Assembly: GCF_016903815.1 (NCBI RefSeq)
Contig: NZ_CP069973.1
Origin: Escherichia coli
GTDB taxonomy: Bacteria > Pseudomonadota > Gammaproteobacteria > Enterobacterales > Enterobacteriaceae
Reading direction: 5' to 3' (one strand)
Length of the DNA: 64,000 nucleotides
Below, piece after piece: positions 29,101 through 38,100 of this stretch. A program made the position numbers. Numbering within the stretch: position 1 is the first letter of the stretch; every line of letters starts with the position of its first letter.

Positions 29101-32100
29101 TCTACAAAGCGAAAAATCGCTAACCGACTTCTTTGCGCCATTACGCTCTGTCCCGTCGTTGCAGATTGGTCGCCTGGAAGTCATCGATGCTCGTTTGCAA
29201 GGTCCGGACTGGGCGGTGACCGACCTCGATCTCAGCTTGCGCAACATGACCTTCAGTAAAGATGACTGGCAGACACAGGAAGGCAAACTGTCGATGAATG
29301 CCAGCGAGTTCATTTATGGTTCGCTGCATTTATTTGACCCGATTATAAACGCGGAATTTTCCCCGCAGGGCGTAGCGCTGCGCCAGTTCACCAGCCGCTG
29401 GGAAGGGGGCATGGTTAGAACGTCAGGGAACTGGCTGCGTGACGGGAAAACGTTGATCCTTGATGATGCGGCAATTGCCGGGCTGGAATATACCTTGCCG
29501 AAAAACTGGCAACAGTTGTGGATGGAAACGACACCCGGCTGGTTAAACAGCCTGCAACTGAAGAGATTTAGCGCCAGCCGCAATCTGATCATTGATATCG
29601 ACCCTGACTTCCCGTGGCAGCTCACCGCGCTCGATGGTTACGGTGCCAACCTGACGCTGGTTACCGATCATAAATGGGGCGTCTGGAGTGGTTCGGCGAA
29701 TCTGAATGCCGCCGCCGCGACATTCAATCGTGTTGATGTTCGTCGCCCATCGCTGGCGCTGACCGCCAACAGCAGCACGGTGAATATCAGCGAACTGAGT
29801 GCATTTACTGAAAAAGGCATTCTGGAAGCCACCGCTAGTGTTTCACAAACGCCACAACGTCAGACCCATATCAGCCTGAATGGACGCGGTGTGCCGGTGA
29901 ATATTTTGCAACAGTGGGGATGGCCTGAATTACTGTTGACTGGCGACGGCAATATTCAGCTTACTGCCAGTGGCGATATTCAGGCCAATGTCCCGCTGAA
30001 ACCTACGGTTAGCGGGCAATTGCATGCCGTGAATGCCGCAAAGCAGCAAGTGACTCAAACCATGAATGCGGGCGTAGTTTCCAGTGGTGAAGTTACGTCG
30101 ACGGAGCCGGTGCAGTAAAAATAAGGACGCTAGCGGATATCAGCGCTAGCGTTCCCCGTTATTAGCGCAAAATTCCATACTCACTGCACAATAACCATTT
30201 CACCGGTTCATCTTCTTCTATCGCCGGAAAACGTCCTCCCGGCTCAAGAAAATAGTTATCGTGTTGGTCATCATTTACCATCGAAATTTCCCAGCCGAGA
30301 ACAAACGCTTTTTCCGCCCAGAAGCGATGATACAGACGCGGCGGCAGGCAAATGCCCTGCCCCGGCTTTAGCACCAGCGTTTCACCAGGTTTCATGGTAC
30401 GCCGCTGACCATCAACACTCACGGTAATGACTCGTTGATCATCACAGAGATTGGCTTCGTTGGCCCAGGCCAACTGCATGCATAAGTCTCCACCGCCCCG
30501 ATTGAGGATATCTTCCATTTTGTGGGTGTGAAAATGCCAGGGAGTCTGCTGATCTTGTTGGATCTGCAACATTTTCTCAGCATACGGTTTTGGATATGCC
30601 GCCGACCCCAGCGCGCCGTTGCGCATCGTTAGCAGTGTTAGTCCCGTTTGGTTGAAATCACCACGACCAAAATCGGTGATATCCCAACCGAGCTGTAAGT
30701 CGACCACTTCTTGCCAGTTATCCCGTTCCAGCTGCAGCCAGTCATCCACCGTAAAATAGGCGAACTCTGGCAAACAAACGCGGAAGGTCTGCGCAATGGC
30801 ATGTGCTTTATCAATAACATAATTAATTTGTGAACGTTTCATTGGCTTCTCCGTTGCGCATAGCAAGCCAGGCAGCGCCACGCATTCCGCTACTGTCGCC
30901 GTGCTGTGCTTTTACAATGGGAGTGGTGAATTGATCGGTGAAAACCAGTGGAGCAACTTCTGCGTTCAGAGCGGTGATAAGCAGTTCCACATTCGAAAGC
31001 CCGCCGCCGATCACAATCACGCCAGGGTCAACAACGTTAACGATGGTTGCCAGCGTGCGGGCAAGCTGTTGGCGAAAACGTGCCACCTGCTGCATGGCAC
31101 AAGCATCACCACGTTGTGCCAGGGTGACAATCGCCGCAGGAGTGAGCAAGTTACCAGTCATCTGTTGATAGCGTTCACTAAAACCGCTGCCGGAAACAAA
31201 CGACTCCACGCAGTTGTGTTTGCCGCAATAGCAACTGACTGATGGACCATCTTCCTGCTCCGTATAGCCTGGCAACGTGATATGACCGCATTCGGCAGCA
31301 TTTCCCCAGGCCCCTATAAACGGTCGTTGCTTGATGGCAATGCCACCGCCGCAGCCCGTACCAAGCGTAATACCAAATACCACGTCATAATCTTGCCCGG
31401 CACCGTCGCAAGCTTCTGATAGCGCGAAACAGTTACCATCATTGGCTATCACCACCGGTTGCCCAAGCAATTGCTGCAAATCAGCCTGTAACGCATGACC
31501 GTTAATCACCTGAATATTCGCGTTTTTAATCAGGCCAGTGAGTGGCGAGATACTGCCGGGTAAGGCGATCCCTGTCAGCATCGGTCGTTGAACGTCCCGC
31601 CTAATCTGCTCGATAAACGCCACAACGCATGAGACAAATTGTTGATATGTCGACTTTTGCGTCGGGCAGCGGTAACGGCGAATCTCCCAGCCATGCGCAT
31701 CCATGACGACGGCGGCGATTTTGGTCCCACCAATATCCAACCCCAGATAGTGCATATCTCGTTCCTTGTTGCGTAAAAGGCGGGTCACCCCGCCCTTCTG
31801 GCTTAGTACAGTGATGCTTTACCGAGCGAACCGAACAGTTTCATTTTGTGGCGAATGACTTCCCGCGCCGCGTTAATCGCATCCGGATAGATGACGTTCG
31901 GGTCCCACCAGCTCTCTTTAGCGAGAATTTCACGCACTTTCTGGAAATAGGCGTATTTCATATCGCTGGAGATATTGATTTTGCCGACGCCGAGCGTAAC
32001 TGATTCAGCAATCTCCGCGTCCGGGTTTGCCGAACCACCGTGTAGCACCAGCGGAATATCAATACGTCCGGCAATGTCGCGCAAAATGTCCATTTGCAGC

Positions 32101-35100: not shown

Positions 35101-38100
35101 TTTTGCGGGCTCGTCTCAACCAGCAATTGCGCTATGATGTCATCATCTGCAAGCGCGCCCGCGACCTGGGAAAGTAAACGGATATGAGTGGTATTTTGAT
35201 CTTCAAGACGTACCGCAAATAAAATAATACAGCGTACGCTACTGCCATCCAGTGTTTCCCAGGGAATATCCTGCCGGGTACGCCCGATAGCCAGCGTGGT
35301 ATTAATTACCGCAGAAGATTTACCATGCGGGATCGCAATATGATTTTCAAAACCAGTCGAGCCTTCCGCTTCGCGCTGCCAGACATCTTTAATAAAGGTT
35401 TCCCGACAATCGATCGCACCATCTTTTTTGAGAAGATTAGTTAATTCTTCAATCGCCTCCGCTTTATTCGTCGCTTGCATATCTAAAATAACGCGATTCG
35501 TATTCAGGATTTTTGTTATGTCCATTCGTCATACCTCATAAAATTCTGACATTAAATTTCAACGACCCGAGATGTCGCATGATGTAATTTTTCCGTAATC
35601 ACCATTTCAGTGACTCGCTTAATATCGGCATCATTAAAAAAAGCGGTAACATAAGCGACCGGCATAGTGACTGTAGGCAAATTAATGGTCGAAATAATCA
35701 GTTCGATATTGTCAGGCAAAACCTGTGATAAATTCGCTGCTGAAATAACATCAACAATCGTCCATTCAGGAAATGCTCGCAGAATACGGCTTTTCAGTAG
35801 ATGCGAAGTTCCGATTCCGGTTGAACAGACCAGTAATACACGTTTACGGGCAATTTGCCGCTCCATCGCAGCCTGAAAATGAACGGTCAGGTAACCTACT
35901 TCATCCTCGCTCACTGCATTCTCACCCCAGGTTTTAAATACCTGATTCACCACATATTGCGTCAACCGCCAGACATCCGCTAATTCTGCTTTAATATCTT
36001 CCAGCAATGGATTACGGATATGAATGCGATAATTTAGTCGGTTAATCAGCGGCTTAATATGAACCAACAAGCCATCATATAATGCGCTGTCTTCACTAAA
36101 ATCGCAGTCCACGATGTCACTGAATACCGTAATTAAACGCCAGGTAATCAGACGCGCTTCATTGCTGGCCTGCATATGTGAAATAATGCTAACATCTTTT
36201 TGTCCATCAATCGCCACACCTGATGAAATGATATATTGATAAATAAACCAGACTTCATCATCGGGCAATGTATGTGCAATTCGTTGTTCTATCTTATGAA
36301 TCATCTGACTGGCAACATTAAAGATATTTTCATCATATTGCCTGGTTTGATCTTCTTCTCTGGATAACGCATTCCCGTGCGTGTTGCGATACATCATAAT
36401 AAGGATGTGAGTAAAAATGTTAACGTAATAAGGCTCTCCCAAAGACCAACTTAATTCATTTTCCATATCCAGTAACAATGACTGGACAAATAACACCTCT
36501 TCTTCTCCAAAATAATGGACTAATGCTTTATAACTTCCGGGATCCAGACGTGAATACACGACACCTTGCGGCTCATTATGGTTAATAATGCCGTTAATCA
36601 GTAATGCCATTGCCTGTCGGACTTGCCCTTCACTACCTTCAATATGCGTACCACTTGGGCTGCGGATCAATGATAACCCCAACGGCGCAAGCCAGGACTC
36701 AATCACTCTCAGGTCATTAACAATAGAGGCTCCACTGATAAAATAGCGCTCTGACAATTTACTGATCGACGTTTCATTCGGTGTTTCACTTAATAACTGC
36801 GACGCTATTTTAACGCGCCTGGCATTATTCATTACACCATCAATCTCTTCACATTCTGCTCCCAACAAATGATCAAGATGCAGCAAATCAGTAATATTCT
36901 TCGAGTCTAACATCACACCTGCGCCAGCACGCTTCTCAACGGTTATTCGCCATTGTTCCAGCCATTGCTCAAGTAAACGTAAATCACGTTGAATGGTTTT
37001 TTCCGAAACATTTAAATAGCCGGCAATCGTAACAATAGTCGTATATTCCCTTCGTGGTAAAAGGAATCGTAATAATCTGTTTTGTCGCGAGGTAATCATT
37101 TGCATTTTTTACCCTTATCACAGATTAAGAAGCCCCATGTGGAAGAGCTTCAGTTGCCATCTCTGAGGGTAAATATAAAGCAGAATAATTTCACAACAAT
37201 ACTAAAATCTGTCCGTAGTCCGGACATGTATAAAACAAAACGGGGCGGTTAATAGATATTTTTCGGCACAGATCACATTTTCGTGATGAATAATCGTGAT
37301 CATGCTCGCAAATACGATGGAAGAAATATTTATTACCAGATGTGAGATTATTTACCGGATACGACACAAAACCATTCGTATCCGGCATTCTTCAATAGAT
37401 TACAACGTAATTGTCAGCGCATTCCCTTGAGGAGTCACCACCAGTCCCTGCTCACTTTCAGCCTGCGAACCACCTTGCAGACCATTTACTTTCACAATAT
37501 TGCGCAAGCACAGTGTCCAGTTCTTCGCCTCGCCCGCACCAGTCACAGTAATCGTGTTGCCAGTACGCGCCGCTTTCAGGGTGAAAAGAACGGAACCGTC
37601 AGCAGCGGGCACTTCACAGATGGCTTCATGCCCGTCTTGTAGATTAAAGAGCTGGAATGCCGTGCCTTCGTGCCACGCGTAATCGGGACGTTGCTCGTTG
37701 TTGCCCAGCGCCAGTAGGGTGTTATCACGCACATAAACGGGCAGACTCAGGAAGCTGTGCTGCTGTTTATGCCAGCGACTACCATCGAGTTCATCGTTGT
37801 GCCACAGGTGTGTCCAGCGACCTTCAGGCAAGTAGAACTGCACATCGCCCGCTTCAGTGAACACAGGCGCAACCATCACGTTGTCGCCTAACATGTATTG
37901 ACGGTCAAGGTAATCACAAGCCGGATCGTCCGGAAACTCCATCATCATGGCCCGCATCATCGGCGTACCCCGCGCGTTCGCACGAGCAGCTTCACGATAC
38001 AGATAAGGCATCATGCGGCATTTCAGTTGCGTGAAGAAGCGCACCACATCACAGGACTCATCATCGTAGGCCCACGGCACACGATAAGATTTGCTGCCAT

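Follow-up and report, generated by a model that had tools for sequence, protein, structure and literature searches.

The frz operon between yicH and yicI of Escherichia coli: an intact locus that looks ancestral at its site

In Escherichia coli K-12 MG1655 the genes yicH and yicI lie 52 bp apart, and in the 64,000-nucleotide stretch of E. coli DNA analyzed here (contig NZ_CP069973.1 of assembly GCF_016903815.1, hereafter the window) eight genes at positions 30162-37105 stand between them. Which operon do these genes form, was it gained here or lost in K-12, and what might it do? The genes encode a regulator (FrzR), the EIIA, EIIB and EIIC components of a sugar phosphotransferase system (PTS), two class II aldolases (ald1 and ald2), a ROK-family kinase and a cupin-type sugar isomerase. 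The original prediction, made from the sequence alone, had described them as a co-directional set inserted between yicH and yicI, absent from K-12 and most likely the known frz operon of extraintestinal pathogenic E. coli (ExPEC). An open reading frame listing and Pfam searches with all eight products bore out the gene set, the named products and the end coordinates; K-12 proved to be arranged as described, and the comparison with the ExPEC operon, now carried out, gave 97.2-100% protein identity at the same site, so that the gene set is the described frz operon in identity, order and position and is not new. The word 'inserted' gives the position correctly and probably reverses the polarity, because synteny across genera and the junction at the empty site point to an operon that was ancestral and then deleted. 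This reading, in which frz looks ancestral here and deleted in the K-12 lineage, is the single addition of the present analysis to a known operon.

An intact frz operon

The operon was reportedly first described by Rouquet et al. in 2009 (J Bacteriol 191:4427) in the avian ExPEC strain BEN2908. A genome paper of 2026 lists it in that strain as region GR27, between yicH and yicI at 3991960-3999186 (PMC12928451), and our direct comparison with this region found all eight genes in the same order at the same site. Protein identities between the window and BEN2908 were 98.6% for FrzR, 98.7% for EIIA, 99.0% for EIIB, 100% for EIIC, 97.2% for ald1, 100% for ald2, 99.4% for the ROK kinase and 98.7% for the cupin, and the DNA was 98.6% identical over 7281 bp, with about 97% in the flanking yicH and yicI genes. 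The near-identical window copy is nevertheless an allelic variant, since the DNA of EIIA and EIIB is only 96% identical and ald1 differs at 8 amino acids, and its background, judged from the closest genome, is probably phylogroup D/E and not B2. Synonymous changes relative to BEN2908 outnumbered nonsynonymous ones in most frz genes, and EIIC and ald2 had no amino-acid change at all; in the cupin gene and ald1 the nonsynonymous differences equaled or exceeded the synonymous ones, and ald1 was the gene with the most protein polymorphism (8 nonsynonymous and 5 synonymous codon changes). Residue 24 of ald1 is Tyr in the window and nearly always Cys in the orthologues.

The eight intact reading frames, all on the minus strand, fill the interval with gaps of -20 to 80 bp between genes; none contains an internal stop, and a Shine-Dalgarno-like sequence precedes each. 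For the kinase and the cupin, RefSeq starts at ATG 31755 and ATG 30842, respectively, and does not use the upstream GTG codons of the longest reading frames. It is hardly credible that the operon is a decaying, functionless relic in this strain, as might be argued from its loss in about 70% of the genomes, from the ratio of nonsynonymous to synonymous differences in ald1 and the cupin gene, and from an IS1 element in the promoter region of the closest relative, strain 98200: all eight frames retain conserved active sites as well as their start codons and ribosome-binding sequences, the window has undamaged promoter motifs, and two of the proteins are unchanged relative to BEN2908. Taken together, we assign the segment, with a probability of about 0.9 for its identity and general nature, to the E. 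coli frz operon, intact and at its usual yicH/yicI place.

History at the yicH/yicI site and distribution in E. coli

A cross-species scan with one genome per species, based on an alignment of ald1 orthologues, yielded 80 loci, and tblastn with the eight Frz proteins and the products of the flanking genes provided a presence matrix. The gene order yicJ-yicI-frz-yicH was found in an Escherichia cryptic clade, Citrobacter, Klebsiella, Superficieibacter, Phytobacter and Mangrovibacter, and the identities of the Frz proteins across these genera resemble those of the flanking yicI and yicH products. Neither mobility genes nor direct repeats were found at the operon ends in the window. The empty site of frz-negative genomes consists of the yicH stop codon TAA, an A, then CATCAATCTC or AATCAATCTC, and then a hairpin, its core being identical in K-12, O157:H7, O111:H8 and O2:H16, and the same ten bases, CATCAATCTC, recur within frzR. 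Strain HS-02 (NZ_CP172818.1, 3727007-3727577) carries the K-12 left junction followed by 266 nt of the 5' part of frzR, the promoter and the yicI-side hairpin; this remnant is 94.7% identical to the window, and such partial matches occur in about five of the 5426 complete E. coli genomes searched.

The synteny, the lack of mobility genes and repeats, the single allele of the empty site and the HS-02 junction together suggest that frz looks ancestral at this site in the Enterobacteriaceae and was lost in K-12-type lineages rather than gained. The removal probably happened once, in the ancestor of these lineages and in two steps, with a first deletion of about 6.7 kb that would have had its endpoint in frzR and a second of about 0.5 kb that would have led to the K-12 state. 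Two observations weigh against this history. A chance match of a ten-base stretch of the K-12 spacer somewhere in a 7-kb operon is not rare, which allows the alternative that recombination at a ten-base microhomology present by chance gave rise to HS-02; the argument for deletion therefore leans on the junction shared with HS-02 and on synteny, and not on the ten bases alone, synteny being a stronger argument than the junction match. In addition, frz of Salmonella serovar Ituri adjoins integrase and transposase remnants, and horizontal transfer of the operon thus does occur.

If such transfer also explained the E. coli locus, frz would be a horizontally acquired, ExPEC-specific insertion and the empty site of K-12 the ancestral state. 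This is consistent with the absence of the operon from K-12 and 3815 other genomes, with the Salmonella Ituri locus, with the description of frz as an ExPEC-associated genomic region (PMC12928451) and with a G+C content of 41-44% in frzR and the EIIA and EIIB genes as opposed to 50-55% in the other five genes (34723-37105 versus 30162-34698). However, most of the orthologues from Enterobacterales that were checked, among them those of Citrobacter, Klebsiella, Kosakonia and Mangrovibacter, show the same G+C gradient, which indicates that it is old; a recent mosaic origin of the low-G+C part was ruled out on these grounds. Given also that frz occupies the yicI/yicH site in at least six other genera with a divergence that matches its flanks, that mobility genes and end repeats are missing in the window, that the HS-02 remnant has the K-12 left junction and that there are carriers outside ExPEC, an ExPEC-specific insertion is highly improbable.

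Applying a coverage of at least 80%, we found frz in 1601 of the 5426 genomes (about 30%). The contiguous K-12-type empty site, as one allele, was present in 3815, and about ten had neither. Carriers in phylogroup B2 include CFT073, UM146, Nissle 1917 and ST131 (98.4-98.6% identity), and others are a swine enterotoxigenic E. coli (ETEC; 99.8%) and a marmot Shiga toxin-producing E. coli (STEC). The claim that the operon marks the strain background therefore stands in the sense that a broad set of lineages carries it, but it does not mark the ExPEC pathotype: with Nissle 1917, the swine ETEC and the marmot STEC among its carriers, frz is not pathotype-specific. Phylogroup typing, which had been proposed as a check, was performed on the closest complete genome, strain 98200, which is 100% identical over the operon and a further 28.5 kb leftward. 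In 98200 chuA is present, yjaA is missing between rrnE and yjaB, and a full-length gene named espL4 in RefSeq lies between iclR and aceK, at the position of arpA; this is a Clermont D/E pattern and not B2, obtained from chuA, yjaA and the arpA position on a genome that serves as proxy for the window, since the markers lie outside it. If frz was ancestral and lost once toward K-12-type strains, the link of this operon, a marker gene in virulence typing of avian pathogenic E. coli in the literature, with ExPEC may largely reflect phylogroup.

Among some 1610 places that match the region, one is in a record labeled as a plasmid. In CUPF09 (NZ_CP182142.1), yicH (89% identical) is directly followed by tRNA-Sec and yicI, yicJ and frz are absent, the locus being divergent or rearranged.

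Probable function and control

The substrate of frz, which the original prediction had called undefined, is indeed not named in any paper we found that cites the operon, and a 2021 review places frz under 'unknown/not clearly known functions'. A literature search for the substrate or for more recent functional studies yielded only reviews and surveys of marker genes. Gene content across species provides a first indication of how the operon is built. The genes for the regulator, EIIA, EIIB, EIIC, ald1 and ald2 keep this order in some 70 species of Enterobacterales; they are also found so arranged, at protein identities of 29-74%, in Marinilactibacillus, Enterococcus, Pediococcus and Lactobacillus. 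In Enterococcus durans these six genes stand alone between tuf and rpsJ, on which evidence the unit is self-contained. Genes for the ROK kinase and the cupin both occur in Escherichia, Klebsiella and Phytobacter and are both missing in Pantoea, Pectobacterium and Erwinia; most Citrobacter have the cupin without the kinase, Mangrovibacter and Brenneria the kinase without the cupin, and Kosakonia is mixed, some species having both and K. oryziphila neither. As judged by this pattern, the two genes are optional add-ons to the six-gene core. Marinilactibacillus has a short Lyx_isomer cupin 3' of ald2, so that the association of core and Lyx_isomer recurs in another phylum. Klebsiella aerogenes carries three extra genes between frz and yicH, for an RpiR-type regulator, a GH4 glycosidase and a PTS EIICB; the yicI-yicH interval thus gathers sugar-utilization genes in other genera as well.

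The PTS components belong to the fructose family (TC 4.A.2), with EIIA scoring 126.9 bits against TIGR00848 (cutoff 103.5), EIIB 99.4 bits against TIGR00829 (cutoff 76.85) and EIIC 311.5 bits against the fructose-type model TIGR01427 (cutoff 157.55). All three fell below every NCBIfam equivalog cutoff for FruA/FruB, Frv, Frw, Fry and MngA, and no frz protein reached the equivalog cutoff of any characterized enzyme or transporter. Across 23 orthologues from both phyla, to which all statements on invariant residues refer, His67 of EIIA (in AIPHG) and Cys9 of EIIB are invariant. The same holds for D81, H82, E131, E133, H178, H208, K228 and N230 of ald1, which scored below all NCBIfam cutoffs, and for D80, H81, H178, H208 and the other equivalent residues of ald2, which reached 525.9 bits against NF006042 (cutoff 405) and has the fructose-1,6-bisphosphate (FBP) aldolase of T. 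aquaticus and KbaY/AgaY as its nearest solved structures. The two paralogues are 33% identical, and both have the features of class II zinc aldolases, an Asp-His pair, two further zinc-binding His and conserved Glu, Lys and Asn; the invariance of these catalytic residues makes both look catalytically competent. The kinase contains the ATP motif DIGGTK and the zinc motif CYCGKHNCVE of the ROK family; its closest models are Mak and NagK and its closest solved structures are of NagK, and its score against the Mak fructokinase model NF007108 was 316.9 bits, below the equivalog cutoff of 443. The cupin can be placed in the D-lyxose/D-mannose isomerase family by its full-length Lyx_isomer match and the His, His, Glu, His set: residues 1-223 align to 3KMH/3MPB, the sugar isomerase of O157:H7, and His103, His105, Glu110 and His172 fall on identical residues; the score against NF051472, 272 bits (cutoff 350), is short of the equivalog. 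In summary, every catalytic or phospho-transfer residue that was checked in the frz proteins is present and conserved.

These assignments suggest a pathway in which the fructose-family PTS would import a ketose-type sugar and phosphorylate it, most probably on C1 in the manner of FruA, and ald1 and ald2 would cleave the phospho-ketose, either as the 1-phosphate or after a second phosphorylation, to dihydroxyacetone phosphate (DHAP) and an aldehyde. It is very likely that the PTS substrate is a ketose or a closely related sugar, and we are just as confident that the two zinc aldolases yield DHAP and an aldehyde. As to the choice between a 1-phosphate and a 1,6-bisphosphate, the kinase-free core favors direct cleavage of the 1-phosphate or reliance on a host kinase. 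Where present, the kinase and the isomerase would channel a free sugar, either an aldose or a ketose (mannose/fructose or lyxose/xylulose type), toward the phosphorylated intermediates; for this conversion and phosphorylation by the cupin and the ROK kinase we see an even chance. It counts against the scheme that family membership is the sole basis for the position of phosphorylation, for the substrates of the two aldolases and for what the kinase and the cupin do. Since the six-gene core has no kinase, a kinase-independent route may also be proposed, in which the PTS would form the 1-phosphate of a ketose, which might be a rare sugar or one with a longer chain, the aldolase pair would release DHAP and a free aldose or aldehyde, and the cupin (aldose to ketose) and the ROK kinase would recover the free half, mannose or lyxose for instance. 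The proposal is speculative and rather unlikely; if true, it would explain why lineages have both, either or neither of the accessory genes and would name the substrate class. In any case, a search for the substrate could start from the six conserved genes and their operator and from the optional kinase and isomerase.

Comparably doubtful is the simpler possibility that frz is a second system for D-fructose, forming fructose-1-phosphate that the host FruK would convert to FBP for two extra FBP aldolases. The match of the three PTS components to fructose-type subfamily models, the FBP aldolases among the closest solved relatives of ald2 and one review that glosses frz as fructose transport would agree with it. 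However, each PTS component scores below the equivalog cutoffs for FruA/FruB and the K-12 fructose-like systems, ald1 is below all aldolase cutoffs, the papers found to cite frz name no substrate, the association with a lyxose/mannose isomerase is recurrent, and a pair of aldolases that are only 33% identical and always occur together in two phyla is hard to explain for a sugar that the host already cleaves.

A different role, in which enzyme flux would be secondary, is suggested by the phenotypes ascribed to frz. According to reviews, strains without the operon are less fit when oxygen and nutrients are restricted, and their type 1 fimbrial switch (fimS) shifts to OFF; these phenotypes are cited here second-hand from the reviews. 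Accordingly, FrzR, built like AtxA and Mga, virulence regulators of Gram-positive bacteria, might act mainly as a sensor that reads PTS phosphorylation and controls, for example, the fimbrial switch, and the succession of HTH, Mga HTH, PRD, PRD and EIIB-like domains without EIIA, together with a weak match to AtxA and AcpB, fits such a role. Yet all catalytic residues are kept in the 23 orthologues of two phyla and synonymous changes exceed nonsynonymous ones in most genes, which argues for selection on catalysis, and the strongest conserved, putative FrzR-type operator is at the operon's own promoter. We consider a primary sensor role unlikely, if a little less so than a D-fructose system; it is also compatible with the metabolic reading.

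The metabolic reading assigns FrzR to the control of its own operon. RefSeq names the protein a 'BglG family transcription antiterminator', and an antiterminator of the BglG/LicT type was considered and rejected. Pfam found neither a CAT RNA-binding domain nor a C-terminal EIIA domain; two HTH domains take the place of CAT, and only the PRDs are common with LicT. Rfam detected no RNA element in the region except tRNA-Sec, and a ribonucleic antiterminator (RAT) was not found, so that, with CAT also missing, an antiterminator/RAT mechanism can be dismissed. FrzR ends after its EIIB-like domain at 517 aa and differs from an activator of the MtlR/LicR type solely in the missing C-terminal EIIA, and its architecture (HTH, HTH, PRD, PRD, EIIB-like, no EIIA) is that of the AtxA/Mga type; judged by this architecture, the RefSeq name is misleading. 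Sequence similarity to the AtxA/Mga type is weak, with matches to AtxA (4R6I, E 1.9e-6) and AcpB (9ATX) and a score of 82 bits against the AcpB/EbpR/MafR model (cutoff 130); the PRDs of LicT also match weakly. H233, H349 and C427 of FrzR are invariant, H409 is invariant in Enterobacterales and Tyr in Firmicutes, and the position matching His159 of LicT is Gln or Tyr. The activity of FrzR is probably set by PTS phosphorylation of the PRD histidines and of Cys427 in the EIIB-like domain, and that FrzR activates its own operon under such control is likely.

Upstream of frzR, alignments of first 5 and then 18 genera revealed near-invariant islands amid diverged sequence (Table 1), and the putative promoter and CRP sites derive from this conservation across genera. 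The islands are consistent with transcription from TTGTTG-16-TATATT, a weak sigma-70 promoter, next to an activator site at TGTCC-N7-GGACA that most likely belongs to FrzR, and with binding of cyclic AMP (cAMP)-CRP at the sites farther upstream, the first of which reads TGTGATCGCTATCACT in Superficieibacter. Several results speak against these putative elements: a sigma-70 consensus scan of the frzR-yicI spacer found no promoter, the CRP consensus is not enriched in the window (27 matches versus 29 expected), and the CRP-like site has two mismatches. On balance, control by CRP is somewhat more probable than not. In strain 98200 an IS1 element (10431-11197 of the region compared) is located at the position equal to window 37220-37229, in the left arm of the palindrome, with these ten bases on both sides of the element; the CRP-like sites lie on one side of it and the core frz promoter on the other, and the window is without this IS1.

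Features of the locus and its surroundings

Table 1. Positions of the frz genes, their flanks and the predicted control elements in the window
Feature	Position	Strand	Description	Basis
yicH (flank)	stop at 30118	+		
frz terminator hairpin (candidate)	30127-30152		between convergent yicH and frz; ACGCTAGCG-loop-CGCTAGCGT then CCTTATTTTT, T-run on frz strand	terminator scan
cupin	30162-30842	-	226 aa; D-lyxose/D-mannose isomerase family, accessory gene	Lyx_isomer full length, 1e-86
ROK kinase	30823-31755	-	310 aa; ROK-family sugar kinase, accessory gene	ROK, 3e-74
ald2	31803-32663	-	286 aa; class II ketose-bisphosphate aldolase, PRK08185 subfamily	F_bP_aldolase, 8e-91
ald1	32744-33595	-	283 aa; divergent class II (zinc) aldolase paralogue	F_bP_aldolase, 1e-74
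EIIC	33607-34698	-	363 aa; fructose-type membrane permease	PTS_EIIC; TIGR01427
EIIB	34723-35037	-	104 aa; fructose type	PTS_IIB, 6e-19; TIGR00829
EIIA	35055-35525	-	156 aa; fructose/mannitol type	PTS_EIIA_2, 1e-34; TIGR00848
frzR	35552-37105	-	517 aa; predicted DNA-binding PRD activator; HTH_11, Mga HTH, PRD1, PRD2, PTS_IIB (EIIB-Gat-like)	Pfam
CATCAATCTC within frzR	36841-36850		codons about 86-89	same ten bases after yicH stop codon in each frz-negative genome examined
frz control region (putative)	37172-37310	-		phylogenetic footprint, 5 then 18 genera
putative -10 TATATT	37177-37172	-		constant-length spacer after TTGTTG
TTTAGTATTGT	-35 at 37199-37194	-	invariant; contains putative -35 TTGTTG	conservation
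palindrome TGTCC-N7-GGACA	37226-37210	-	invariant	conservation
AAATGTGATCTG	37280-37269	-	strong CRP half-site (putative)	conservation
CRP-like site TGCGAGCATGATCACG	37310-37295	-		fits TGnGA-N6-TCAC
hairpin right after yicI stop	37355-37385		counterpart in K-12 empty site; no clear U-tract	
yicI (flank)	stop at 37400-37402	-		

Just beyond yicJ are tRNA-Sec (selC, 41403-41497) and an integrase gene (41797-42981). By comparison with strain 98200, the island at selC, a typical integration hot spot, carries LacI-family, MFS and GH31 genes. The window contains two IS1 copies, at 50445-51216 and 56724-57491. Relative to 98200, the latter replaces about 5.3 kb that hold eilA, a gene for an IpaD/SipD-like needle-tip protein, a segment of a hypothetical gene and the 3' end of the adhesin gene air (EaeX), and the ETT2-associated cluster is consequently truncated in the window. 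The inverse-autotransporter gene air/EaeX (57492-64000) matches itself in a ladder with steps of about 291 bp and 83-89% identity, that is, in tandem domain repeats.

Relation to known systems

Like the regulators of the MtlR/LicR/ManR and AtxA/Mga groups, FrzR has an N-terminal pair of HTH domains, two PRDs and a domain that resembles EIIB(Gat). It has the PRD histidines and the EIIB cysteine of MtlR, whereas the second histidine of PRD1 is missing; MtlR and LicR possess a C-terminal EIIA(Mtl)-like domain that FrzR lacks, and AtxA has not kept the P-loop cysteine that FrzR retains (CSTGIGTS). The frz cupin belongs over its full length to the family of the O157:H7 D-lyxose/D-mannose isomerase (3KMH, 3MPB), with the same four positions and roughly half of the aligned residues identical.

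A homologue of the operon has been described in Listeria monocytogenes as lmo2133-2138, for which no substrate was reported (PMC2996996). This locus and the operons of Enterococcus, Pediococcus and Marinilactibacillus likewise comprise a regulator, EIIA, EIIB, EIIC and two class II aldolases, and the Firmicute loci compared share the gene order of frz and have kept its phospho-sites and zinc ligands. They differ from the E. coli operon in that the ROK kinase and the cupin are usually missing, protein identity is 29-74% and His409 of FrzR is replaced by Tyr.

Fructose-family PTS for tagatose exist in Klebsiella oxytoca and Bacillus licheniformis. The tagatose and galactitol/N-acetylgalactosamine (GalNAc) pathways proceed, as is proposed here for frz, from a fructose-family PTS to a class II ketose-bisphosphate aldolase, and KbaY/AgaY are near ald2. 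In contrast, these pathways have a PfkB kinase and, as the partner of the aldolase, GatZ/KbaZ, which belong to another family, while frz is without a PfkB kinase and its partner is a second aldolase that keeps the catalytic residues.

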